The position numbers and the translations under genes are program-made. The notes beneath the pieces are model-generated. The model ran no database searches. It was given only the letters and a program-made list of their open reading frames with translations, and had not been told where the DNA came from. From contig CM082577.2 in assembly GCA_040954595.2 (NCBI GenBank), positions 1,860,001 through 1,924,000 of the forward strand: a stretch of 64,000 nt of DNA, given 5' to 3'. Shown piece by piece: positions 8,284 to 46,108 of this stretch (positions within the stretch are counted from its first letter, which is position 1; each line of letters begins with the position of its first letter). Source of the DNA: Balanoglossus misakiensis. Lineage: Eukaryota; Animalia; Hemichordata.

Positions 8284-8907
8284 TTATTCCTTCTCAATTA
8301 TTTCCTCTCCTCCACTGGCGTCTTCCACTTGGGATTTTTCCTTGTTTTTCAGCGTCTCGTTGATCTTCTTCCGGGTGCACTGCATCATGTCCATGGTCAG
8401 ATTGATGGTGAACCAGGCCAAGGCCAGCAGAGCGGTCAACCCCAGAGCCAGCAGGCAGATGAAGACCAGTACTCCAGACATGACCACTCCGGCCAGGGTC
8501 ATCAGCGTGCCTGTCACAATGTCAAGTACAGCATTTTGTCAATCTTTAAATTTCATGAAAATGCGGTTTAACTGAAATTCAACAATTATTTACACAGACA
8601 GTGCAGTGGTTGCAAAAAGACAGGAGGAACAGCACTTACCTTCAACAAACACAAAACCTATGAAGCTGACACAGAGAGTCGTCACGACGAAAAAGATGAA
8701 ACCCACTATCGGCACGCTGGCCATCGCTATGACAACTGCACAAAACACGGTGAGAAGAGGATGTTCCTGAGCAAACTCCATGGCCTGGGCCGAGACTTCT
8801 TTCAAATGCAGTCTCTGTCCGACCATATTGGTCAAGTTGTTCAGTCTCTCTGACAGCATCTCTGGGGTGATTTTATTGGGGATGGGCCGGGTGGATTCCG
8901 ATGACAT
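8284..8907 (-). CDS. LDAF1: Lipid droplet assembly factor 1 / promethin (TMEM159); coding exons 8907-8640 and 8510-8284; probable non-coding first exon with donor at 9341
   Basis: HPLLTVFCAVVIAMASVPIVGFIFFVVTTLCVSFIGFVFVEG-TLMTLAGVVMSGVLVFICLLAL is a long double-hairpin hydrophobic stretch matching the promethin pattern HP..L......S.VP.GFF...V.T........EG. A phase-1 GT-AG intron joins the two ORFs in frame. Confidence 0.8.
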
Positions 8908-9341
8908 GGTGATTTCTTCAGTTATGTGCCTGCAGGCAAATCATAGCAGATAATATCCTTTATTTGAAGTATTAAATCTTGTTCCAGATATATTATAGAC
9001 TAGTGGTATGTTCTCAAAGACAAGAATATTTAAAAATACTATTACATGTATTACAGTAACTATACTGTCTGTGTTTTTACTTGAAGTTGTACATGTAGAA
9101 GAACAAAGTATTAGTTTGATCATTCTTGTATTTGAGAACAAAAATACGATGATGAAATCGTGAAATCGAGATGAGTCTATTAGGAACAAATTCCTTGACG
9201 TACACACATTTATTATAATCATTTGTTGTCTCATTGAGGGGCTCAGCAGCACGCTCTGCCTTCGTATCTCTCATGTCCCGCTATCATAATCTTATCAGTT
9301 CCATTACGTAAACTATAATCGAGTAAAACTTGGAGACCTAC

Positions 9342-9440: not shown

Positions 9441-13356
<3,916 letters not shown>

Positions 13357-13796: not shown

Positions 13797-16700
13797 TCAG
13801 TAGTCGTCTGCCGGTAGTCCGCGGGAGCCGAGGGACAATGAGACTTTGCGCAGCGCCGGTTGTATGTGCGGATACTCCTGGTTCATTTTGTCGACAATGG
13901 TGGTCAGCGTCTGCATGCGGTCGACCTGTTTCTGCGTCTCTGTCTCCAGCGCCTGTTCCGTCTTGCACAGCATAGTGTACTTGCCGTCCTTCAGGGCGTG
14001 GTGGTGCTTCAGTTTCTGCTGCCTGGCAATCAGGTCGGCCATGTTCTGGAAAGGGGTAGAGAGAAAACACACTCGGTCAGCGACGCGGGTGATAAAGACT
14101 AGCAATGGCAGCATATGTCAAAGTGAAGGTGGGCAATGTGGGTATGTCTTGTACGTTTTCACAGCAACTCACCCTTTGTTTGATTTCCATGAGTTGTTCA
14201 ATGTCCCCATCGAAGGTGTCAGCCTGGCCCTGCAGCTGTTGATACGTGGTTTGCTTCTCTTCCAGCTGTTGGCTCAGCTGTTGCTGATGACCTCTCAACT
14301 CTCCAATGTCCCCATCACATGCACCGGCATCCTGCAACACACACAGGGTCAAAGTTCAAAGCTTTCTACAGTAATTGCTGAAACTTAGCACTGATTTTAC
14401 GCAGCATTTCAGTCCGAAACAGACAAAATGAAATGATACGTTTGGTGAAGTTGCTCAATGCTGAAAAAATTTAACAAAACATCATGAATGCATTTTTTTA
14501 CCCACCTGTTGCACTTGTCTGATTTTCTTTTTCATCTCAGCCAACTTCTTCTTGAAGGTGCCTTTAGTTTCTACTTTCTTGTTCATCTTGGCCTGGGCGT
14601 CGCCTCTGGTTACTATGGTGTCGCGCCGGGAGACGGCCTTCTCCATGTCCTGGATCATTTTCTCCTGTTGCTTCATCAGCTGTGTGTAGCGCACCTGCAT
14701 TCGGTGGATTTCCGCTTTCATGGCACGGATCTCGCCCTGGCCTACCTCCGAGTCGACTGCGGCCTTAGCCTCCCGAGCCAGCTGTGTCTTCTTCTCCCAC
14801 AGCATGATTTGGCGCCTGGAAGAATTGCAGCAAAAAGAAGTGTTAGCCATACAACTACAGTCAAACCTGTGTTTGTGGCCACCTCTATATAGTGGCCACA
14901 TTATTCAGTTACTGTGCAGTTTACATGTGCATTAATTGACCTGTCTATAAAGGCCAGTATGGGAAAGTCCCTTGAGTGGCTGCTATAGGCAGTATCGACT
15001 GTAGTTTGAAATGACAATGAAGGACAATTTTCAGTCAGTGTCCATGGCATGGTAATACCATAAGACTGCATTTGGGAACTTACTCAGCTTCTACAAGACT
15101 GTTGAGAAGTCTTTCTTTCTCCTCTGTAAGTTCTTCCACAGTGGTCTGCATGTGGATAGACTCATGCTCTGCTTCCTGTCAACATAAGAACATTCAAATA
15201 TCAATAGATGGTTTTTCGCTCATTGCGAGATCTCGCAAGACTTGGTTCACTGCTGTAGCAACAAGACAACCTTTCAAATAAATTAGAAACCCAATATGGG
15301 TTCATAGAACTTTGGTACACCTTACCCTCAGACTTTGCATGAAATCACTTTCAACCAGTACATTGCCTTGTTCCAAATCTTGTTTGAGTTTCCCTTCCTT
15401 GGTCAGCAGTGTGTTCAGTTTGATCATGTCATTCTGCATGTTGCGGATATTTCTCTGAATATCGTCCTCCTCCTTGTTATGTGTGCTGATTTCATCTGAA
15501 GAACATATTACAATGAATGTTAGTCTTCAACAGAATGGCAGAAAGAGCAGACTTTGTAAGCAACTGCCAGTGAGTATTCAGGCACGACATTTTCACCAAC
15601 TTACTTTCAATTCTAAGTTTCTTCTGGTGCAGGATAGTCAGCGCTTTCTTCATGGTCTGCACCTCAGTTTCTTGGCCGTCTTTCTCCTTGGTCAGTTTGA
15701 CCAACTCGTTCTGCTGTCTCAGCCAGAACTGTTGCAGGTCAGCGATCTCCTGCGATCTTTGGTCAATGGACTTGGTCAGCGCATTGATCTCTTGCTCCAA
15801 GGGACCGAGTTCTTCGCCCTGGTGATGGGGAAAAAATTGTCATTGATTACTCCACTGTGAAAGTTTGTGATTTGTACATAAGAATGTACGCACTGTAGTT
15901 TTGTAAATATTTTCATGATGTCTGAAGTAACAACTTACTCCCTGAGCACTGGCGATGGCCTCGATCTTCTTATTATACTGGTCAATCTGACCCTGCTTCC
16001 TCTCAATCACAGCATTTCGCTTGACGATTTCGTTTTCGCTCTTAGAGATGATCTCGTTTTTCTCCCGGATTTCGTCGTCCATGTCAACCAGGATCCTCTT
16101 GAGTCTCTCACACCTCGTAACCGTGTGCGACAGTTCTAGTGTATCTCTGGCAATCTCATTTTCCACTTGTGCCATGGATGACTCCTAGCAAAATGAAAAA
16201 AAATCAAGAACAATTTTTAGGATGCGATGTCTGAAGAAAAGGAACGAACCTCACTACTCTTTGCACTGAACGTTTATTACTCAGTTCTCTTTACTGTTCA
16301 GGTGGAGAGTCAGAGAAAGTTGGCCCGCAGGCCTAAAACTCCATGCTGGGTTAAATTTGGTTATGATATCAGAAAACAGAAGACATGACAGATATTTTGC
16401 TTTAAAACATAACAAGGCCCCAATGATGACAGGCAATATAGGGAAAGCATAATAAACATTGCAAAAATACCTGATCACGAGTCCTTCCGCGGAGCTTGTC
16501 TGTCATTTTCTTGGTGTAGAGTGCAGCTTTATCCATCGTCAATTCCTCCCTCAGTTTTTCCATGATGGCATCCTCCAGTCGTACTTTCTCCTGGTATTCC
16601 CTCTCGATCTGCTTCCTGAGAGCATTCAGTTCATTCATGCGGAGACTACGATCCTGTGAGAATGAATGTAAGAGATGGATATCAATTCCTTCAAGATCTT

Positions 16701-26500: not shown

Positions 26501-29249
26501 ATTGCTTGATACTCCTAGGAAATTTCACACATAAATTGTTATAGACCTAGTTTGCGATCAGACCTCGATTTTCCCTCCATTTCCCTCATTCGCATCATTT
26601 CTGTAGTGATCAGAATATCCATACTCAGGAATCTACATCCTGGATTAAGCGGTAATGAAATAAAAAAACATTGCTCTGTGTGGAAATTTAGCTGATTTGG
26701 GTTTCCCGAAAATCTGGGATTATTTAATCGTCTTGAGTCATTTTGGAATGCACACGGCAGAAACTAATCTCAGAACACTTCCTTGCATGTTGCGGTATGT
26801 CTGATATGTTTTGGGGATTTTTATCGGTATTGTCATATCCAGGGTCTCACGGAGAGTTTGTGTGTGACTCAGGGCTGTGTATGTTGTTTGTACACAACTG
26901 ACAGCTGTGTGTGAAAGAGGTGCGTGAGTATACCGAGATTGGAGTGTAGTACTGGCTTGGGTACTTCATGATGTGGGATTGAACATATGTGTTTGTCAGG
27001 GAAGTGTATTGAGTGCCTAGCAAATATATGTGACTCCAGAGCCAAAAAACAACAAGTCAATTTTGTGATAAGAAAAGATATCAGTATGAAATTGGGAGCT
27101 GTTTTGTTTTGATCCAAAATGGTGTGATACTGATAGTCATAAATTTTGCCAATGAACAATGTACGACACAGCAGGTAGTACAAGTTTCAGTCATTTTTAT
27201 AGAATTGTTCTGTGTATGCACAAATATAGTGGAAAAGTTACAAATATTAAAGTCGGAAACTCCTGTAAAATTTTTGAAAAGAATCTAAAGGGAAAGCTGT
27301 TGTCATTTCTTTTTCTACTCCCAATCACAAGAACAATTTCTTTCTGAGAAAAACTCAGTGCATCTCATTGGACAAAACAATCATGCTCCTACAGTGTTTT
27401 TAGACATTATCTTCAAAAGTCTGCAAAAAGGCCAGTGAAGGCACATATCACCCCCTGGCAGTCAGTACTGTATATTACACTTGAAGTGGAAGTGCCCGAT
27501 GTAAGAAGACACCGGTGTTTTGCATCAGTCTGGGTAAATATTGCCCTTTACCTGCCGTGCAGTTTAAACAAGTCTCTCAGCATGCAGCAGCCTGTTCGTT
27601 TCTCGCTTTCAAATCGGTCTCTTTTTATTCCATTTCAAATGACCCTAGCTCAGCTTTCTACCTCTGCGACTCTGAGGCAGTGCAATTCTTCATACATCTA
27701 TATGGTTGTTGAAAAATTCCCCTGGTACATCAGTAATCCTGCTCAGAGCTGATTTAAGATGAGACGAGAATATGCAGACTGTGTTGTGTCAGATCATTTA
27801 CTCGGCAGTGTGACCTATCAGACCTATCAACACCCTGTGGGTGTTTTTAGTGTTTATCGGACACCCAGCCGCACAAATTTGATGCCAAAGAAAACACTTT
27901 CGAGATTAGAAAACTCCTCCCCTGGAATTACGTTGTAAGGCTAGCCTGAAATTTAATCTCAGACTGGAAGACGAAATTGCATGTTGTATTGAACACAAGT
28001 ATTTGTACCAGTAGTTCTGAATGCCAGTTTGGCATTAGTCATTTTGTACTTGTAGGCTTTCAAAATATCCCTCTGCTGTTCATATTTGTAAGGATTGACT
28101 CAATATGATCAGATCCAAATGATTTGAAGGCAGTCTAATTTGTTTAATTTCAGATTCCAAACATCTCACCTTCATAGGAGTACAGTAGCCTGTAAACTAT
28201 GGCTTTGATACTTCAGACTCAGTATCACTTTTGCAGAATATGCCATGCATTCATAGTTTTCTGTGGTGCCCAGATGAGGTGCCCTGTTGTTTGTGATGGC
28301 TAATTTTGTATGATTTATGGGTCCAGATAAAATATGTAAACTATCTTATGAACAGGTGAATATGTACCATAGATAATTCATTACATTTTAATACTGGGTC
28401 ATGACAGAACCAGGTCTGTGCCCTGCGCTATATTTTGGTTCTAATTCTATAGTGTCCTCTTTGAATTATTGAATTATTCAGTTTTTCTGGTTGTATTTTT
28501 GTATTGGATCAAAATGTCATGTCCTTGCCTGGTGTATACCGGTATGTTGAAACCAGAATTTATTAGTGTGTATGTGGATTCTTTTTGTCAAAATTAGGAT
28601 GAAAAATTCTATGAAAATGTCTTTTTTTAGAAGCTGATACATGTATGTACACGATATCGATAATCTCATGCTTGCCATGCATGGAATGGGCAGAGAGGTC
28701 TTTGAAGGCCAGGAGATTAGTTAATATCTCACAGAACAATTTTGTGAGATGCTATGAATATATATTATGACAAACCTAATCAAAGTTCTAACCAGACTAT
28801 TTCTTAGCACTTTGTTGATCAAAATTTGAGCTGTGTTTTCCCCCTTATCATGTGGTGATGCTGGTGTGAAAAATTTCAATTGAAAGGTAGATGTTTCTTT
28901 CTTCCTTTGTTCGCCGAAGCGTGATAGAATCACACAGTTGCCTGCTTTTAGTCGACCGATGAGTGGGTGTACGTTGTATGTCAGCCAGTTTTCAACTCTG
29001 CCATTTGATCAGTTATCACGAAATGCCAATCGCCGTTCTCGGCTATTTGGAAGAAATTTGAGTGTATGAAGCCTGAGTTTTATGCCGAAAATAGATGCCA
29101 TGACTATCGTGATGATTGGATTTTTGTTTTGGTTTCAGTGAACACTCAAAAAAACACCTCAACGAGCCATGATGAAAAAGTAGAGACCTCTCGTCGGATT
29201 TGATTCACGGACCCAGGATTCTCATCCCTCGTTCTGCATCACAGTTACC

Positions 29250-32200
29250 ATGGCAGCCCTTTGGAAGAAAGTGTCGGACATCCTCGGGATCTCGAACAAC
29301 GACATCAAGGCACCACCGCTGGACGGCGAGATCATCTACTGCAAGAACAACGTCTGTGTGCACCCTCCGACAAAACTCAGCAGCCAGATCGAGCACCATC
29401 CGGGCTACCTCACCATCCGGGCTCAGGAGGAGGAAGACGTCGGCTCCACCCTCATCCTGACCTGGATCCCGAACTCGTCGCTGAAGAAGAGCAAGAAGAA
29501 AGCGGCGCGTTACCTGTCGCCGCACGGCTCACCGATGCACATGCGGTTCGCCCGCGCCAAACAGACTTCACTGGACGGGATCAGCCTCAGCTCGCTGGGC
29601 TCTGTCAGCCAGGACAGCATCAGTATTGCCAGCTCCGAGGCGGAGCGGGTCATCTCTCTGGAGTTCTTGAAGGAGAAGCTGGAACGAAAACAGAGGGGCG
29701 CACGGGGGGAGACCTCGGTGGTGGAAAAGAGAGAGCTGGCGGATAATTTTGAGAATCCTGAACAGGGAAGCGGCGAGGTCTTGAACAACGTCAAGCGGCC
29801 ATCCACGGAAAAACAGCCAGATATCGGTAAACACGTCAATGAGTTGAACGAGAAAAATAACATTAACAAGGCGGGGAGCATCAGCTCCGTTAGTTCTGAT
29901 ACGGTTGACGGGAACGATGAGAAGGGTGGGGACAAGGATTTGAATCTCGCCAAACCAGACAGCCTGGCGATAAACGTGGACAGGGAGGCAAGTGCGTCGG
30001 AAAGCGACGTTTCCCCGGGATACGGGGTTGTCAGGGAGGTGGGTAAACTCGCCGTCGAACATCAACCGCTGCTGCTGTCAGAGAGCGAAGATGGAGGAAG
30101 GAGTGATGTTGGTGAAATGAGCCCGACGAAAGAAAGGAGAAATGTCAATCCAGGGGAGAAGGCACCGCAGAGCACGGATGTTGCCTGTCCTGATGAAGGG
30201 GAGGTAACAGGGGGAATGAAGTCTGTGGAAGGTTCGCAAAACAGTCACGAAAAGACAGAATCGCAGGAAACAGGGTCGACAGATAAAGATGCGAGTATGC
30301 AGAATGAGAAAACTACAAAGACAGACAGAAACCTGTTAGCATCACCAGCAAAAAGTGACAGTGCTTCATCCACTGACAGTGAAGTGGTGAAAACTGAGAA
30401 CCAACTCCACGAGTTGTTGCAGCAGGTGGGCCTCGAGGAGAACGGGTCTCAGAGCGTCGACGTGAACGACGAGAAGCCTGAACGACCGTCGGAGTTGGAT
30501 GTCAAGACCAAGAAGGTGATTCACACCGCCATAGGGGACTTCGAAGAGGACAGCCCCAGCTCAGACTCCACCAACGCAAGCCCCTACCCTTCTCCGTACA
30601 AATCACTCATGTACGGACCGAACGTCGAGAAGACAGTACTGCACGTGGATCCTTCCCTTACTGCAGTGGTCCACTCAGACGCTTCGAGCTCCACGACACC
30701 AACCACATCCAACCGAGACCCCATGTCGCTGCCAAGCACCCCAACGGACTCCAGTGGTCCGTCCACACCCAGCGCCAGCGAACCACCGTCTCCGCTCAAC
30801 ACCGCCGAGCGGCAGAAGTCGATGATGGAAGGGAATCCGGAATCCTTTGCCATGACTCACAATCTGACATTCCCAGATAATTCCATATCCTACACCTCAC
30901 CTCAAAGGAGGAACCTGTGTCCCAAAGATCAGCTGCTTGGGGTGTTTTCTGTCGACCTGTCTGAAATGAGGTCGCTGCGGTTATTTTTCTCGGACGACAA
31001 CTGCACATGTGGTCAGTTGGTCATTGCTAGCAGGGAAAGCCAGTACAAGATCATTCATTTTCATCACGGCGGACTTGACAGACTCGCTGAAGTCTTCGAA
31101 GACTGGAAGATCTGCGTTCAACAGAAAGAAAAGGTAGGGATTCATTGACTGTGTTTAACCCTTTTACCTCCAGTGCCCTGTGTATGGATTCAACCAGGCT
31201 GTCATAAATAGCAGGTTTGTGGTGAATTGGGTTAAACTGACAATATATTTTGTAAATGGTGCATACGCAGGTACATGCATAGAGTGGTACTGCTTTTAAC
31301 CCTTCACCCCCATTTCCTGTGATATAGTTTCAACCAGGCTTTCATAAATAGCAGAAACAAAAATAAAGTGGTGAATTGGGTTAAACTGACACAGTATTTT
31401 GGTAAATGGTACATGCATATTGATACTGCCAGGATAAATGAAGATAAAGTATAGTCTTCATAAATTGAAAAATTTTCATTATTTTTTCACCATTTGTATC
31501 CCTACAGTTCCAATTTCTAATACAAAATGACAGACATTGGCTTGGATGTGAATGCTTTTTACCTAGTACATCATGTTGCAGGCGTAAATGGACCGTCAGA
31601 CATCACAGTTCATCGATCTGTGGAATTATTTTCCATGTGCTAGTGGCCCATACATGTCCTTGCAATGACGACCATTCTCAGTCTGATATTCCATGCTCTA
31701 CATACATACACCATCTACAATGTCAATTTCTTTTATACCCATTCGCATATACAGCGTAATGCCGAAGTTGAATTGAACCAGTTGTGCCGGAAATTCTCCA
31801 TCTGCCGGCCCCATCTTCCCTCATCCGACTGTCACCCGGAAGAGGGAATGTACGGCGTGGTGTCTGATGAAGTGTGGTGGTCATACGTCAGTGACTACGG
31901 ACAGATTGAGGACAGTGAAGGTCTGCGAAAGGTCAGTTTTAATCTGAGGGATCTGGGCCTCTTTGGATGTGAATATGAATGTTGACAAGGAAATTTATGA
32001 ACTGCGATCAGGAAAATCATGAATTATATGACATTTTAAATTAAAGTAGTTCTGGATGAAGATTTCCACACACACGTTCGTAGGTAAAATTTCCATTGAA
32101 CACACACTGCCCATGCAATTCAATATGGCTGCCAAATGCACTGGGGCAAGTAAATTAATGATCATCACAGTAGGGCGTGTTAGCCAGGTTGGATACATAC

Positions 32201-35200
32201 CTTAAAAAATCTCACAATTTTTCTCATGTCTTTCTGAAATGGTATTGCCTAGGTTGCAATGGCCAACATTCTTTACCCTTTCACCCCCAGTTCCCTCGTT
32301 AGAGGTCCAACTTTACCATAGAAATGTACTTTTTGCAGGCAATCTTCTTTGGTGGACTGGACGAGTATTTGAGGAGAGATGTATGGCCGTTTCTTCTGGG
32401 TTACTTTGACTATGAGTCCACAGTGGAGGAGAGAAATTCCATGAGAGGGAAAAAAAGAGAAGAATACTACAACATCCAGGACAGAAGGTAAAAAGTTGTG
32501 CTTTCAGAGTTGTGTTTGGAAATAAATGTTAAAAAATTGTGTAGCACATTTTAACTCTCTTTCAAAGTTTTTGTACCGCAATGTAACAGAAACGTTACTT
32601 TCAAATACAAGTAAAAGGGATTGAACTCAGTAAGCAAATCAGGATTTTGTAAGGAAAGGAGAAAAAACAAACTTGGTATGGTATATACATGTATAGAAAT
32701 AAGAAACCACATTTATTTTGTTGCCAAGGTAATGGATTATTCTATCCAATGCAATTTCCACAAGAACATCATTACTTGTAATGATGTCAGTTTTCTCCGA
32801 AACAGGCAAATATAATCCAAGAGATTAATATGAAAGGAAGCCCTATTGCTATGGTAACCACATTAGATAGTCTATCAATTTCGACCACTTTCTGTTGTTT
32901 TCAAAATCAGATCTGTTAGATTTCCAGATTTCATGCCATGCCGTACAGAGTAGCCCCCCATAGCGTCTTATTTAATATCTGAGAGATAGTATCAGAGCCG
33001 TATTTACTTACTTTAAGACTGGGATTTTAATGTTTAATGTAATCTTTATGAACCCAGGAGCCACACTTTAAAAAATTAATGTACTGGCAATACTCGTGTA
33101 TATCCATGACGACAGTTTTTGTTTCTTTACAAAGGATCTGACTTAATAATCGCAGCAAAAAATATGTGATCTTATTACAAAAATTGCATTGGGAAAAATT
33201 AAGTGACATGAAGGCGTGATGCATAATGCAGTATTTTGATCTTGAAAACATTTTTGCAATGCCATATGGCTTTTGAAAAGGAAGGTGAGGTTATCTGCAG
33301 GTCAGAATACAGATCAATTTTGCCATGGAATAATGAATACAGTATGTGCTGGCACGTTCTTCCTGGTTTTATAGCAATCCCGGTAATGCTGTTCATTCAG
33401 GAAGTTTGGAGTCCGTGTGTGGGTCGGGAGATTTGAATCAGGGAGGAAGTAAGGGCTCTATGATTTTTTTTATTAAAATGAAACGGAAAAAGGTGGATTT
33501 TGGTTTGTAGAATCCTAGCTATCTTGATTGGCAATATACACTTGACAGTTAAGACACATTTTCCAATTTTATTTTGGATTTGTTTGAAACTCATAATGAC
33601 AGTGCAGTTGCCTAGCACACCATATGCTGTCAGAAACATCAATCTACAGCGAGTGCCAATGCTCGACTGACTGACTACAGTTGTTTTTTTCATCATTGAC
33701 GTATGTAGATGAATTAATTTTGTGTTCAAGCAAGATCTAATCCCCCTCAGGGTTTTAAAAGTCCAGAACTTTCAATATGATGTTTAGAGAGATTTTAATT
33801 GCAAGAGTAATCTATAAAGAAACGTTAATACTTGAGTAAAATCAATGATTTTAATCAGAGAAAGATTTAACATCTCTGGTAAAGTGAATGACGTAAATGT
33901 CGTATGTAATCACAGTATGTGGTAAAAAATGTTGCTGGCAAACTAATGTTGATAGTACATAGTTTCTCTATTACAAAGCTAAATTTTCCATCAAAATGAT
34001 ATTTTCACTGCCCGCAGCTTTGTGCTTCTATGATGTTCTACACACTGTTTCAGTGTCATAAAGGTTAGACTTGAAATGTGACAGCACATAAATTAATTCT
34101 CTCGGTTTTGGAATAAAAAATTCAAATCTGAGTCAACTGCATCCGCTGATGTGGAGCAAATGAACTGATCTAATTATTGTGCCCTAAAATTAGCTCATTC
34201 TGCGATCCCAAGTGACTGCTCATTGATTCTACCTCAGATTGATATTTTTTCACGTGAATACTGCTTCGATCATCAGGCGTACACCCCCTGTACAGTCTTC
34301 TGTCTGCAAGTATGTTTGTCTCGGGGGCAACATTAACCCCTCTGACACTCATTTCACTGCGATAGGCAGCAGCCCAACTATAAACATTCTAGAGGATTCA
34401 TCCAGTCTTGAAAAAAACCCACAGGTGTACGGGGAAATGGAGGTGAAAGGTTTAAACATAAACAATACATGTCTGTGGTTTAAATAGCATTTTGAAGTCT
34501 CAAATTACTGATATTGTTTTTGTCTCATTTTGTTTTACTGCAGAGAGACAATGATCGGAGAGGAATACGAGACTTTCTGGAGGAATGTTCAGTGCACGGT
34601 GGATAAGGATGTTGTCAGGACAGATCGAAGTCATCCGTACTTCAAGGGCGAAAATAATCCCAACATCGACGTCATGAGGTTTGTGGAATAATCCAAGCAT
34701 TGATGTCATGGTCATTGTTTGTGTGAGGAAATAGCTCTAATATTGATGCTGTGATGTTTGTGACAGCAATTGATATAATAAGATGGAAGTTTTGTATCAT
34801 AATGTTTGCAAACAAAATCAGCAGATCATTTTTTTCAACCCACATAATTTGGAGCAATTTCAGACACTCTTTCTCTGCGCAAATAAATAAACCAAATGAA
34901 AATTTGATGTGTTCTTCTTCCTCCTCCACAGAAATATTTTACTGAATTATGCCATATTCAATCCAGAAATGGGTTATTCCCAAGGAATGTCGGATTTGCT
35001 AGCACCTGTCCTGGCAGAAATCCAGGACGAATCCGACGCTTTCTGGTGCTTCGTAGGGCTCATGCATAACACGATATTCGTCAGTTCGCCGACAGATGAC
35101 GACATGGAGAAACAACTGGTAAGATTGTACTTCACTCAGGGAGCTGTCAAAAAAAAGGAAGAGATTATCTGACCTATCTTGCCATGGAGATCCTAATCTC

Positions 35201-39576: not shown

Positions 39577-39900
<324 letters not shown>

Positions 39901-41193: not shown

Positions 41194-44100
41194 ATGGACC
41201 TCATCCAGACGGGACTCTACATCGGAGGTAGCGGGGACGCGAGAAACTCGCAGGCTCTTCACGACGCAGGCATAACGCATGTCTTGTCCATAGAGCTGAT
41301 CAAACCCGATGTCTCTCCAGACTTTGTGCACAAGTTTGTCCACCTCATGGACGATGAAGAGTACGATATACTGAAACAGTTCCCGCAGTGTATCAAGTTT
41401 ATCCAAGAAGGCATTGAGAAAGGCGGAGTGCTTGTTCATTGGTAAGTGCCCCTGGTAACTACAACAGCTATAAAAGCACAGCTGTTCTCAGTATATGGTA
41501 TTTGGATGTGTTGCTGATAAACCAGACATGCATTTTGATTTTTCGTGAGGAAATAGTGAACAATAAGCAAGTTTATATAAAAAAGAAGATTTTATTGAGT
41601 GTTTCTGTATGAGAATGTGACATCCACCAGTAGTGGTCGTCGTACACTAGTTAAGATTCTCAACTACAGATAGAAAAGATTCCACACATACCATCATCCA
41701 AAATGTCTGCATTTTCTGTCACAGAGCAGCTTTATTATCACTTTTTGCATGATAATATCTCCCAATTTATTTACCTAAAAAAACTTGGAAAACATTTCAA
41801 AATGTGAAGTTGAGGTAAATCTTTCCCCATGCTCAGTTTAATAGTAAGTGCGGTGGTATGGTGGCAGGAGTTATTTCAGAAATTTCCTCTGATGAGGGCA
41901 AGAGTGAAAGATAAATGCCTGACAGTGTCAGGTTACTCAGGTCAAATTGAAATTGATAAAAGGGGAAGAATTGTATTTAAGATGGGATTTATTATATTGA
42001 TTTTAGGAATGGATAAATTGTGCGAAACATTTTATCATGATATCTGGTATCAAATGTATGCTCCAAAATTTGTCCCTTGACCACTTCAAAGAATAGGACT
42101 TCAAAGAAGTCGTCGAGTATGTGAGCATAATGCTTCAGACATCAATACACATGTAATGGGTCATCACATCACAGAATTAGAACCATCCTCAGGCGTACAA
42201 ACTTCTCTGCACCTCTAGAGTCCAATTGACATTCCAGATTCCTCTGCTCAACAACGATTATAATTTGAACGTTAACTATAACTTCTGATCCGTGTAAAAA
42301 AACTATGAGTCAAGTATCCATCTAAGGACTTTGAATGAATGAAATTTTATCTTACACATGTAATAGGGGATAGGTTCTTCCCTATTCTTGTCTGTGCTAC
42401 TTTTGCTCTGGAATGTCATGGCGGAGAAGGTGACATTCTGAGGCTATTCAGAGGTTTTCATTCTATTTATGAGGTGTGCTCATAGATCCAAGAAGTTTTT
42501 GATATTTTTTGCCATTCCAAAACATTTCAAATTCACCCAATAGAAATATGCTTTCAGATTTCCAGTACAAGAAGGCTATGTTTAGTAAAACAATTTGAGT
42601 CCTCACTCCTCACTATCAAATAAAATGGATAATTACCCTGGTCTTTGAATAGAAACCCCTAAAATAATCCTGCTCATGGGTGGTAGGTAATCATATATTA
42701 CTGGAAAGCTCAGATTATATACAAATTATGTCATATTTTTCCACTTCATTGCCTCTTCAAAATCCCTGAGCGGTGAATTTTTTACTCTTACTCGGTTACT
42801 GTTTATTTTAAGAAGTCTAGACAAACATCAAATATTTTTAAAGGATCTTTATTTACTGTGAAGGCTTGATGGAGTCTAGATCTATCTGTATGACTAATAT
42901 TGAGAAGTGCACTGTGCTAAGTTTGTCTGATGAGAATGACTGCAGTTTGACCCAGAAACCTATAAACAACTGTCAATTAAGTCTGGTCTGTCAGTCTTTA
43001 TCTGTCACACATTCCAGAATACTTTCTGCCGATATAGTTTCAGAGCTGTACGTAGTGTTTGGTTTCCATGAGTAGAAATTCCCATACAGGCCACAGGCAT
43101 TAAATCATCTGAAAATATCTTGTCAGTACGGCTGTTCAGCTTGTGAGCATCAAAATGTGATCCATGCTTGGACTATATTGTCAGAGTTTATGAGGTATAT
43201 TGTGGTCACAAAGTAGACTCCTTGAGAAACAATGCATGCGTTTTCTTGCAATTACATTGAAATAAAAATGTGGATGATACGTCTTTAATTTGAAACCGGT
43301 TCTTCACTCTGTATCGACGCCAACAGATTGATACCTCAAATTTCTGAAAACAACTATTTTATTTGAAACATGACTCTCAACACTGTCACTTCAATTTCTC
43401 CACCAACACTCCAGCATGCTGGCTGTGTTTACATCATCAGGTCGTTTAGTCTGACAGCAATATGGTGTGTAATTTCAATACTTGTGTCATTCTGCCTGAT
43501 GGCTGACATTCTAACCATGGTATCTTTCAACATACATTCATGAAAATTAATTAGACACACATCTTCCCTGTTGTATTGTTTGTTGACACGTAACTGGTAT
43601 TGTCTTTCAGATCATCAGTAACGTCTAAATACTAAATCATCTTAATTTCTCCATTTTTTTCTGTTCACCTTTTTCATTTCCAATCCCTCCACCTTTTTTT
43701 GCCTTTTTTTTCTTGGTTTCTTCACTCACTCTCTGTATTCCCGTTTCCCACCTCCCCTGGAATTGTCCGTTTCTTTCCGAGCAGTGCCATGGGCGCATCG
43801 AGAAGTGCCGCTGTCATCCTTTCGTACATAATGCACTCTGAGAAATTGTCGCTGGATGACGCCATTGCAAAGGTGAAAGAAAAACGAGAACGGATCAGGT
43901 ATGAAATGTAACATATATCGTGAAGATTTTTTTGTTTTCTTTTCTTTTCGCAGTGCATTTGGTGCATCTCGCAGTGCTGCAGTAATCCTAGCCTATCTAA
44001 TTTTTTTGGAGAGAATTTCTCTGGAGGCTGCGATTGCCAAGGTCAAAGCAATAAGACCAAACATAAGGTTTGTACTGCATCATGTACAAACGTGAAAGCA

Positions 44101-46108
44101 AAATAAGGAAAGCAAAATTATAAAAAAAGGTAATTGTACTAAATTTGGGTGAAAGGTGATGGTTTCAATTTGAAAGAAAGTGATGAATTCCAACATATTG
44201 TCAGTTTTCAAATGTTTGCGCTACTTTACGAGTCAAGAGTTCACAATAAAAGTTGTATTAACCCTTTCACCACCATAGTTAATTGGTAAAGTTGAACCTC
44301 TAAAGAGAGAAATGGGGCTGAAAGGGTTAAATTTTGTCACATGCAGAAAAGTGTATATTAAAATTGGACGTCATCAGCATTGGGAACCAATATATTTAAT
44401 AATCCTTTAATAATTGTTCAGTAAGCAAAAGATGTAAAAATGGTGCACAGACAAACTTGCTCGGAATTCAGCATAGCTTAGCAGCATTGAAAATCTTTCT
44501 CTTCTAGTTAGAGACTATTGTGAAATAACACTCTGGGCCTTCATTGTTTTAGTGACATTGATTTTACATCTGGAAATAATCTGAACTTTCATTTTAATCT
44601 CTTACCACAAGGTTGGAGATGAGTTTGTTGAAGGTTACAGGGTGCTTTTAGCTTCATTAGTGTACATGTCACGTGGATAGGGAAGTATGGAAAGAGATTA
44701 AAATTTAAATTCAGACCAATTTCAAACATACATGTATGTCCAACCTTGTGGTAACTCTGATAGCAATGAAGAAAATAACCAGATGTGACAATGAAAATAT
44801 GTTTGTTTGTTTGTTTGTTTGTTTGTTTGTTTTGTGTGTGTGTGTAGACATAAACTTGATTTTCATGTGGTATGGTTGTTTTCATACAGTTTAAAAAATA
44901 CATACAGTTGCCAGTTGCTATCTTGAAAACTTCTGGTTTTCAGGTGACATCAGAGTTTCAATCTTTCAACTTTGTTCCCAATTTCTGATCAAATTCTGCA
45001 GTTAGATAGAGAAATTGGCCAGAATGCTGTCTTTTGCTTATATATTCTTTGCATTGGAGATATTGAAAAATGCAAAAATGTGGCAGCCACTGTCTGTCTT
45101 CTCAACGTTATTATCCAAAGCACATCAAGGGACAGCAACCCTGCCCCTTTTTGTACAAGAACATGACTAAACTCTGCAATCTCCTCTTATTCGTTTCTTG
45201 TGTAGACCAAACGATGGCTTCATGCACCAGCTGAGAATCTTCGATGCCATGGGAGGCATCATCCAACCAGAGAACCCCTTGTACAAGCAGTATCAACTGG
45301 ATTTCAGGCCAGAGGTCAGAGGTGAGAGGTCAAGAATGTTAACGACAGTGCTTCCAGACTGGCTTTTGACTGTAAAGTGGGATGGTAGTCGTAATGGATA
45401 TAATGTCTACCTTGTGTTTATTAAATGGAAAAGAAATTTGGTTGTTTTGTTATGACGCAAGTGTAGTAATTAGGTTTTGTTTAGACTACTGCATAGATGC
45501 GTGTGATTGGGCACACAAGTCATGAGTGCTGGAGCTTGGCTGGCAGAATTTGTAGACAGCATCTCACAGCACTGAATCCAGTGAAGAGTATCAGATGGCA
45601 GGGTATCAGGAATGGGGTGAAAATTCATGTGAATATCCAAAACGTTATGCGATATATCTAAAATGAATTTTGCCAAATGTAAAACTTTTGACTGCACATC
45701 TTGCATAATCATGGTAACAGAATGAAGTACGTTAATATTTTTTTTATAGAGCCTGTGGTTTATGTGACGTTCAAAGTGAGCTACAAACTGGACCCCACTG
45801 ACGGACACAAGGAGGCCTTGGCCATCACCGGCGAGCACCGCCTCTTGGGCAAATGGAGGAAGCACCGACTGATGAGACCCAAGTGGGGACCCGACGGCTG
45901 GGAGATCACGCTGGCCTTCTCGCAGAACACCACGCTGCTCTGGAAGTTCGTGGTGGTGGAGTACCAGAAGGCGTCCAGTCGGCAGTACGGCCCCAAGTCA
46001 ACGTACGGATGTGGGAAGGTGATCAGTTGGGAGGGCGGCGACAACCGGGTCCTGCAGACGGGGACTGACCAGTGGATCTTGATCGAGGGCCAGTGGGGGA
46101 AGTGTTAG
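41194..46108 (+). CDS. DUSP12/YVH1-like dual-specificity phosphatase fused to a C-terminal CBM20. Exons 41194-41441, [43785-43898 or 43954-44067], 45206-45321, 45750-46108; 278 aa
   Basis: GLYIGG...GITHVLSI...HLMDDEEYDIL.QFPQCIKFIQEG...GGVLVH-C (codon split TG|T) then AMGASRS or AFGASRS, AAVIL.Y, and RPNDGFMHQLRIFDAMGGIIQPENPLYKQYQL (DUSP12-like tail). A phase-1 junction leads in frame into VTFKV...EALAITGEHRLLGKW...M...DGWEITL...LWKFVV...SWEGGDNRVL (CBM20 signature). Confidence 0.85.
44258..44330. mobile_element. piggyBac-like MITE
   Basis: TTAA-CCCTTTCA...TGAAAGGG-TTAA: TTAA target duplication and CCCT/AGGG termini. Confidence 0.75.
44800..44846. repeat. (GTTT)n followed by (GT)n microsatellite
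   Basis: Directly visible. Confidence 0.9.

Follow-up and report, generated by a model that had tools for sequence, protein, structure and literature searches.

A phosphatase gene of the acorn worm Balanoglossus misakiensis carries the exon for its catalytic P-loop as an old tandem duplicate, and we consider it likely that exactly one of the two copies is spliced into each transcript, which would give rise to two enzymes of 278 residues. The gene is found in the window, i.e. the whole 64-kb stretch of DNA analysed here, and its product combines a DUSP12-type phosphatase (DSP) domain with a C-terminal CBM20 starch/glycogen-binding domain. Mutually exclusive use of the two exons is well, if indirectly, supported because the two models of the orthologous gene in Ptychodera flava hold one exon type each, because both copies are conserved, and because nonsynonymous differences between them (pN) are far rarer than synonymous ones (pS). 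That proteins can be diversified through mutually exclusive tandem exons is well known; a swap of the catalytic P-loop in a Cys-based phosphatase by exon choice, however, is unusual. We appear to be dealing with a known splicing device in a gene where this device had no earlier description: literature searches, judged in part by titles and the beginnings of abstracts, returned no P-loop exon swap in DUSP12-like genes or in hemichordates, and those on CBM20 with dual specificity phosphatases and on laforin in Saccoglossus (titles and abstract beginnings) returned nothing on this gene.

The gene lies on the forward strand at 41194–46108 and has four coding exons, the second of which exists in two alternative copies, 2a and 2b. 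Its product of 278 aa is encoded as follows:

41194..41441, forward strand: coding exon 1, from the start codon to ...VLVH plus the TG of the catalytic Cys codon
43640..43784, forward strand: long pyrimidine-rich tract before exon 2a (79% C/T over 150 nt)
43785..43898, forward strand: alternative exon 2a (114 nt), supplying the final base of the Cys codon, the P-loop A-M-G-A-S-R and a pair of helices, and ending in ...KEKRERI plus AG
43899..43953, forward strand: spacer intron of 55 nt between 2a and 2b
43954..44067, forward strand: alternative exon 2b (114 nt), supplying the final base of the Cys codon, the P-loop A-F-G-A-S-R and a pair of helices, and ending in ...KAIRPNI plus AG
45206..45321, forward strand: coding exon 3, with the last part of the DSP domain (PNDGFMHQL...) and the linker
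45750..46108, forward strand: coding exon 4, CBM20 domain and TAG stop codon at 46106–46108

The protein shows the traits of the Pfam family PF00782, namely the HC-X5-R P-loop, an upstream general-acid Asp and the DSP fold, and H87, C88, G91, S93, R94 and D58 are invariant in the protein alignment. Exon 1 contributes the first half of the DSP domain together with its invariant Asp and matches positions 1–79 of Pfam DSPc (E 1.6e-4); exons 2a and 2b each match positions 82–117 (E 7.4e-10 and 4.2e-7, respectively). The CBM20 domain in exon 4 matches Pfam CBM_20 with 38.4 bits against a cut-off of 23.3 (E 1.1e-9), and its nearest solved chain is the CBM20 of STBD1 (8x8k, E 1.2e-6). The same two domains, DSPc and CBM_20, are given for the orthologues in precomputed Pfam assignments. 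When exon 1 was used as a query, 3 of 31 candidates passed an E-value of 0.001, all of them hemichordate DSP+CBM20 proteins. Full-length relatives with this architecture were not found outside hemichordates in an exhaustive search, in which only one representative cluster was matched from end to end; the hits that came next, with two matching stretches, were rejected as such relatives, having tandem DSP domains and no CBM20 (eight checked in Pfam).

Exons 2a and 2b are homologous tandem duplicates. On re-reading the sequence, the coordinates, the lengths of 114 nt, the phase (2-2 for both) and the splice sites given in the first-pass annotation proved exact: each copy is preceded by AG, with a pyrimidine tract upstream, and followed by GT. 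The catalytic Cys codon is indeed split as TG|T, its TG at 41440–41441 being completed by the first T of either exon; likewise, the final AG of either exon forms an Arg codon with the A at 45206. The two peptides share 23/37 identical residues, as had been counted by hand, and 29/37 similar ones (BLASTP, E 1e-14), and both keep the Cys-X5-Arg motif. The swapped segment comprises, as described earlier, the P-loop, with Met in 2a and Phe in 2b, and the two helices that follow it. Of the 114 nucleotides, 74 are identical, the differences numbering 9, 8 and 23 at the three codon positions, and 15 of the 23 identical residues use different codons, in agreement with the earlier remark on divergent codon use. 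Accordingly, pS amounts to 0.70 and pN to 0.25 (p = 8e-5 by an approximate Fisher test, with counts rounded). The comparison of dN and dS between the copies, named as a check in the first-pass annotation, yielded a dN of 0.30 and a dS of about 2 (Nei-Gojobori), with synonymous sites saturated. Together with the one-to-one pairing in Ptychodera flava described below, these values bear out the view that both copies are old and under purifying selection. The 50 nt that flank each exon on its two sides, in contrast, are dissimilar between the copies (16/50 and 17/50 identities, ungapped), so that the coding parts alone have been preserved. A third copy was not found by tblastn with each peptide against the whole window, where the matches of 2a and 2b had E-values of 1e-9 to 1e-21 and all others of at least 0.3.

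The orthologous gene of Ptychodera flava, a different species from that of the window, is represented by two RefSeq models, XP_070579745.1 (X1) and XP_070579746.1 (X2), which are the only two members of its cluster. They share the DSP+CBM20 architecture of the window gene and are similar to it in length. Being equal in length themselves and 95% identical, they differ only in the 37-residue segment after HC, which is of the 2a type in X1 and of the 2b type in X2. Both are automatic XP_ models; alternative models at NCBI as a rule need transcript support. No published description of them was found in literature searches. That they hold one exon each strengthens the earlier proposal of probable mutually exclusive splicing into two isoforms.

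Exon 2a of the window is identical to X1 at 33/37 positions and exon 2b to X2 at 32/37, as compared to 23/37 in the crosswise comparisons. With this, 2a and 2b are as conserved between the two species as the constitutive exons are (69/82 or 84% for exon 1, 34/38 for exon 3 and 98/119 for exon 4). Since they pair one-to-one with X1 and X2, both copies predate the divergence of these species and have stayed under constraint. Eight residues distinguish the two exon types and are fixed in either species: the P-loop has Met/Phe, the end of the first helix IM/LI and that of the second EK-ER/AI-PN, and one further difference is K/R. In Saccoglossus and Glandiceps, the models of this gene contain the 2a-type exon only.

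Both P-loops lie within the natural range: across 273 motifs in 273 related proteins, the second variable position is occupied by Ala in 163, by Met in 38 and by Phe in 12 cases. Exon 2b also keeps the canonical RP..I.PN.GF context, as found in 87 related proteins. AlphaFold models of X1 and X2 agree in their secondary structure, both showing helices at 94–107 and 111–121 and a pLDDT of 95–98 over residues 81–130, although both runs were built on one shared alignment and cannot separate the isoforms by function. The X2 model superimposes on the catalytic domain of human DUSP12 (4ki9) with a TM score of 0.92 and an rmsd of 1.9 over 155 columns; the CBM20 part is of low confidence in both models (pLDDT 33–58). 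By sequence and predicted fold, 2a and 2b thus both look like parts of a working enzyme. The isoforms would differ in the shape of the active site and, as a consequence, in the substrates that they prefer or in the way they are regulated; either one would be anchored to glycogen via the C-terminal CBM20.

Either exon alone keeps the frame and gives an open protein of 278 aa. If both are skipped, TG is joined to A, giving a TGA stop at codon 83. If both are included, the frame stays open over 316 aa; the junction codon then becomes Ser, so that the second copy lacks the catalytic Cys. Because double inclusion is in frame, nonsense-mediated decay would not clear such a transcript. The intron that separates the exons is, with its 55 nt, shorter than the other introns modelled for this gene (2343, 1138 and 428 nt), as had been pointed out before. 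Introns of about 50–60 nt are spliced in some animals. This spacer holds the GT donor of 2a, all candidate branch-point adenines and the AG acceptor of 2b within its 55 nt; the last candidate branch-point A is at spacer position 28, there is no A between positions 28 and 54, and a pyrimidine tract of 25 nt is free of A altogether. As the donor and the candidate branch-point adenines lie within 28 nt, U1 bound at the 2a donor would leave no room for U2 at the 2b branch site, and vice versa, and double inclusion would be blocked sterically. The distance of at most 28 nt falls below the threshold of about 50 nt, which comes from human exons, where a donor-to-branch-point distance of less than 50 nt is given as a criterion for mutually exclusive pairs (PMC5740500). 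For the C. elegans clusters treated in PMC4165533, intervening introns that are too short are described as never excised.

The choice of one exon at a time might also be governed, in place of sterics, by RNA structures that compete with each other or by regulators that bind to the long pyrimidine tract, a reading that we regard as unlikely. It could draw on a predicted hairpin (-25 kcal/mol, z -2.03) between the purine-rich 3' end of 2a and the pyrimidine tract and acceptor of 2b, and on the 150 nt before 2a, which are 79% pyrimidine and may possibly serve as a binding platform for a splicing regulator. Yet the hairpin is weak, being equalled by 4 of 200 shuffled sequences, and a purine-rich coding stretch pairs easily with a pyrimidine tract by chance; the wider fold of 481 nt is no better than shuffled sequences (z -1.42, 11 of 100 as good), and inverted repeats found elsewhere in the introns are short and rich in A and T. 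Docking and selector structures were rejected on these grounds, and steric exclusion between 2a and 2b remains the mechanism that we favor.

We consider it improbable that both exons are normally joined or behave as independent cassettes, with a 316-residue protein containing the repeated segment beside the single-exon forms. Such joint inclusion would be in frame, and it has a precedent in the separate true DUSP12 of hemichordates, in which the homologous exon is likewise duplicated in tandem. Both copies are present in two RefSeq models of this paralogue, Ptychodera flava X1 (357 aa) and the sole Glandiceps model (354 aa), and neither copy in Ptychodera flava X4, so that either-or use is not guaranteed for such pairs. 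Among 273 related proteins, 26 have at least two P-loop-like motifs, which are 38 residues apart only in these two hemichordate DUSP12 models, although isoforms are collapsed in the protein libraries, which makes the absence of this spacing elsewhere weak evidence. For the gene studied here, however, no Ptychodera flava model with both exons was present among the matches of three protein searches, including one with X2 as the query and lengths restricted to 155–496 aa (8 matches among 344 candidates). Furthermore, the spacer has no branch-point A past position 28, the second copy would be without its Cys, and 38 residues would be inserted into the core of the DSP fold. Skipping of both exons, for its part, results in a TGA stop codon. 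Least probable of all, and in our view very improbable, is that only one exon, presumably 2a, is really used and that 2b is a decaying or rarely used duplicate picked up by automatic annotation: the 2a-type-only models of Saccoglossus and Glandiceps would fit, but 2b matches its Ptychodera flava counterpart at 32/37 positions and thus as well as constitutive exons do, retains AG/GT, an open frame, Cys-X5-Arg and the RP..I.PN.GF context, and shows both a pN far below pS relative to 2a and type-specific residues fixed in the two species.

To time the duplication, we calculated a tree over 37 columns from 20 exon peptides, consisting of 11 hemichordate exons and 9 DUSP12 sequences that were chosen by hand from 120 listed ones (one chosen sequence was dropped, its P-loop being missed by the motif pattern). 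The two 2b exons group with a support of 99/95, the 2a exons with 66/72, and 2a and 2b together with 69/87. Neither a duplication restricted to ptychoderids (AU p 0.275) nor a shared ancestry for the a-type exons of the two genes (p 0.173) is rejected.

The parallel pair suggests that the swap matters for function and did not arise by mere chance. In addition, 2a and 2b provide two naturally occurring versions of the active site in an enzyme that is otherwise the same, and therefore a clean system for understanding how the second variable position of the P-loop and the helices under the pocket modulate a dual-specificity phosphatase. With its DUSP12-type and CBM20 domains, the gene is also a candidate for a glycogen-associated phosphatase outside the laforin lineage. 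A broader scenario, which we offer as speculation and hold to be rather doubtful, is that acorn worms joined a DUSP12-type domain to an STBD1-type CBM20 in an independent invention akin to laforin and SEX4, and that this gene and its DUSP12 parent are each run as two enzymes by a P-loop exon swap older than the gene duplication and retained from the enteropneust ancestor onward.

Among known proteins, the closest solved relative is the catalytic domain of human DUSP12/YVH1 (4jnb, 4ki9; E 1e-25, fold TM 0.92). DUSP12 has a C-terminal, cysteine-rich zinc-binding domain at the place where the window gene has CBM20, and we do not class the latter as a DUSP12/YVH1 orthologue; its alignment to true DUSP12 proteins diverges past the YKQY motif. 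Laforin (CBM20-DSP) and plant SEX4 (DSP-CBM48) likewise unite a DSP domain with a starch/glycogen-binding module in one polypeptide. The domain order of the window gene is, however, opposite to that of laforin, and its CBM20 is nearest to that of STBD1 and not to that of laforin. Glucan phosphatases have the P-loop signature C-zeta-A-G-psi-G-R; the window gene shares with them the DSP domain and the carbohydrate-binding module, but its P-loop, C-A-[M/F]-G-A-S-R, does not fit this signature. As to splicing, exons 2/3 of alpha-tropomyosin are a sterically enforced mutually exclusive pair, and in these as well as in let-2 and egl-15 of C. elegans, adjacent alternative exons are separated by a spacer in which the donor is too near the branch point. 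The spacers in C. elegans measure 14–30 nt and are shorter than the 55 nt found here, where exclusivity is proposed from the sequence; in the window gene, too, the alternative exons are adjacent and the donor lies within 28 nt of every candidate branch point.

The phosphatase gene examined here, in a window with a G+C content of 35-47%, combines a DSP catalytic domain with a C-terminal CBM20 and carries two alternative exons, 2a and 2b, separated by a 55-nt spacer. A script trying all nearby boundaries returned one open model per alternative exon, each of 278 amino acids. The exons of this DSP+CBM20 gene are:

41194-41441, + strand: exon 1, with the ATG start; 3' end GTT CAT TG, then gtaagt
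43785-43898, + strand: exon 2a, 114 nt, AG before and GT after
43954-44067, + strand: exon 2b, 114 nt, AG before and GT after
45206-45321, + strand: exon 3, whose first A completes an Arg codon, then PNDGFMHQL...
45750-46108, + strand: exon 4, encoding the CBM20, with a TAG stop

Exon 1 breaks off within a Cys codon, two bases past the His codon, and the missing base is the T with which both 2a and 2b begin; both end in AG. The coordinates and sites that the first-pass annotation had given for the paired exons, including the split Cys codon, are borne out by the sequence, and the spacer is indeed the shortest of the modelled introns, the others measuring 2343, 1138 and 428 nt. About 1.3 kb upstream of the start codon lies an intronless histone-fold ORF (39577-39897, + strand), for which Pfam gives histone-fold family matches only and which we take to be histone H4. 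Pfam matches elsewhere in the window are:

2043-2465, + strand: cyclin N-terminal domain (ORF piece)
8593-8940, - strand: promethin (ORF piece)
10353-12033, + strand: class I Trp/Tyr tRNA synthetase, three exon pieces
15495-15839, - strand: BRE1-type coiled coil (ORF piece)
29184-35169, + strand: RabGAP-TBC protein with a Rab-binding PH domain (ORF pieces)

The peptides of 2a and 2b, which both align to positions 82-117 of Pfam DSPc, are identical at 23 of 37 residues (E 1e-14), the same count as previously made by hand. On the DNA level they share 74 of 114 bases, with 9, 8 and 23 differences at codon positions 1, 2 and 3, and 15 of the 23 identical residues use different codons, as the first-pass annotation had noted for many of them. 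The proposed constraint is likewise reflected in a dN/dS-type comparison of the two exons, with a pN of 0.25 against a saturated pS of 0.70; their intronic flanks show no likeness. These features identify the pair as an old duplicate of which the coding sense alone was retained. No third copy was found by tblastn in the 64-kb window.

Searching with exon 1 yielded three proteins among 31 candidates, all of them hemichordate and with DSPc and CBM_20 domains: from Ptychodera flava (84% identical), Saccoglossus kowalevskii and Glandiceps talaboti. Two isoforms, X1 and X2, make up the P. flava cluster; they are equal in length and differ solely in the 37 residues following His-Cys, where X1 contains the 2a-type and X2 the 2b-type segment. 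Exon 2a matches X1 at 33/37 and 2b matches X2 at 32/37 residues, against 23/37 crosswise, which places the duplication, as judged from these identities, before the split of B. misakiensis and P. flava. Compared with 69/82, 34/38 and 98/119 for exons 1, 3 and 4, both alternative exons are conserved at least as well as the constitutive ones, in keeping with the old age and purifying selection suggested for both copies. Eight positions are fixed differently between the two types in both species (2a/2b: IM/LI, K/R, EK.ER/AI.PN), among them the previously described Met/Phe difference at position X2 of the Cys-X5-Arg loop (P-loop). The annotated Saccoglossus and Glandiceps models contain the 2a-type exon only.

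P. flava X2 and X1 were modelled with AlphaFold on one alignment of 38 sequences, i.e. four hemichordate proteins and 34 short DSP-only representatives picked from the 150 matches listed. Both models show a strand (83-87) that terminates in His-Cys, then the P-loop (88-94) and two helices (94-107 and 111-121), followed by a loop leading to a further helix (129-140), with a pLDDT of 95-98 over residues 81-130. The closest solved chains by sequence are 4jnb and 4ki9 (E 1e-25), and the X2 model superimposes on the latter, the human DUSP12 catalytic domain, with a TM score of 0.92 and an rmsd of 1.9 over 155 columns. By this predicted layout, which agrees with the suggested swap of the active-site loop and following helices, the alternative exon provides the entire phosphate-binding loop past Cys and the two helices packing beneath it. 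Among 273 related P-loop motifs, X2 is Ala in 163, Met in 38 and Phe in 12; given that Met and Phe both occur naturally and that either exon preserves the catalytic residues Cys, Arg and Asp, both isoforms should be active. They may differ in substrate preference or regulation.

The gene models and sequence features make it probable that 2a and 2b are used either-or, one per transcript. Each P. flava model holds one of them, the matches of the protein and cluster searches include no P. flava model of this gene with both, and the two are separately conserved. Skipping both would fuse TG to A, creating a TGA stop at codon 83. With both included, the second Cys codon would read as Ser, and the fold core would have to accommodate 38 extra residues. 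In addition, the last A before the acceptor lies at position 28 of the spacer, followed by an A-free pyrimidine tract of 25 nt. For human clusters, PMC5740500 sets a donor-to-branch-point distance below 50 nt as the criterion for steric interference, and for C. elegans clusters PMC4165533 states that too-short spacers are never excised; we give a specifically steric exclusivity about an even chance. Against either-or use, double inclusion stays in frame, so that decay would not police it, and the paralogous true DUSP12 gene has models with both copies. As weak regulatory hints, the 150 nt upstream of 2a are 79% pyrimidine, and a hairpin is predicted at 43861-43956 (-25 kcal/mol, z -2.03; 4/200 shuffles as good), whose arms are the purine-rich 3' end of 2a and the pyrimidine tract plus acceptor of 2b, with the 2a donor in the loop. 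It could be a chance pairing; the wider, 481-nt fold is not significant. The pyrimidine-rich stretch directly abutting 2a (43640-43784) is unusually long; such tracts serve pyrimidine-tract-binding splicing repressors in other alternative exon pairs.

True DUSP12, which has a zinc-binding tail, was reached by searching with the next-best P. flava match. It is represented by four P. flava models: the homologous 38-codon catalytic segment is present as a tandem pair in X1, as the second copy only in X2, as the first only in X3, and not at all in X4. Both copies also occur in the one Glandiceps model; Saccoglossus has the second type, and the aligned sequences from other phyla have one copy, similar to the second type. 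At least two P-loop-like motifs occur in 26 of the 273 related proteins compared, and their 38-residue spacing only in the DUSP12 models P. flava X1 and Glandiceps. Judging from these models and this restricted spacing, a tandem catalytic-exon pair of the same kind is present in two paralogous hemichordate genes. In a 37-column exon tree, 2a and 2b group at 69/87; neither a ptychoderid-only duplication (AU p 0.275) nor a common origin of the a-type exons in both genes (AU p 0.173) is rejected, and the tree cannot decide whether the pairs share an origin.

Mutually exclusive tandem exons are a textbook device, and the P. flava isoforms are already in RefSeq as automatic models. Judged by titles and abstract openings, we found no description of such exons in DUSP12-like genes, nor anything on the DSP+CBM20 gene or such exons in hemichordate phosphatases. 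The tandem pair is real: a known device in a gene for which we found no description.

The CBM20 scores 38.4 bits in Pfam (cut-off 23.3), and its nearest solved relative is the glycogen-binding C-terminal CBM20 of STBD1 (8x8k, E 1.2e-6), not laforin, which hints that the gene may have arisen by fusing a DUSP12-type domain with an STBD1-type module. When 1.84 billion representatives were searched exhaustively, 13 proteins reached 1e-30 or better, and only one cluster, hemichordate, matched at full length; of the matches ranking next, eight were checked in Pfam, and all of these lack a CBM20. The likeliest role would be that of a phosphatase held on glycogen particles. We rejected assignment as a DUSP12 orthologue, since this protein lacks the zinc domain and hemichordates have a DUSP12 of their own besides it: the catalytic domains are alike, but the C-terminus is a CBM20 instead of the zinc domain. 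The likeness to glucan phosphatases is in architecture only, and the P-loop presumably does not fit their signature. The domain order, DSP then CBM, is the same as in SEX4 and opposite to that of laforin.
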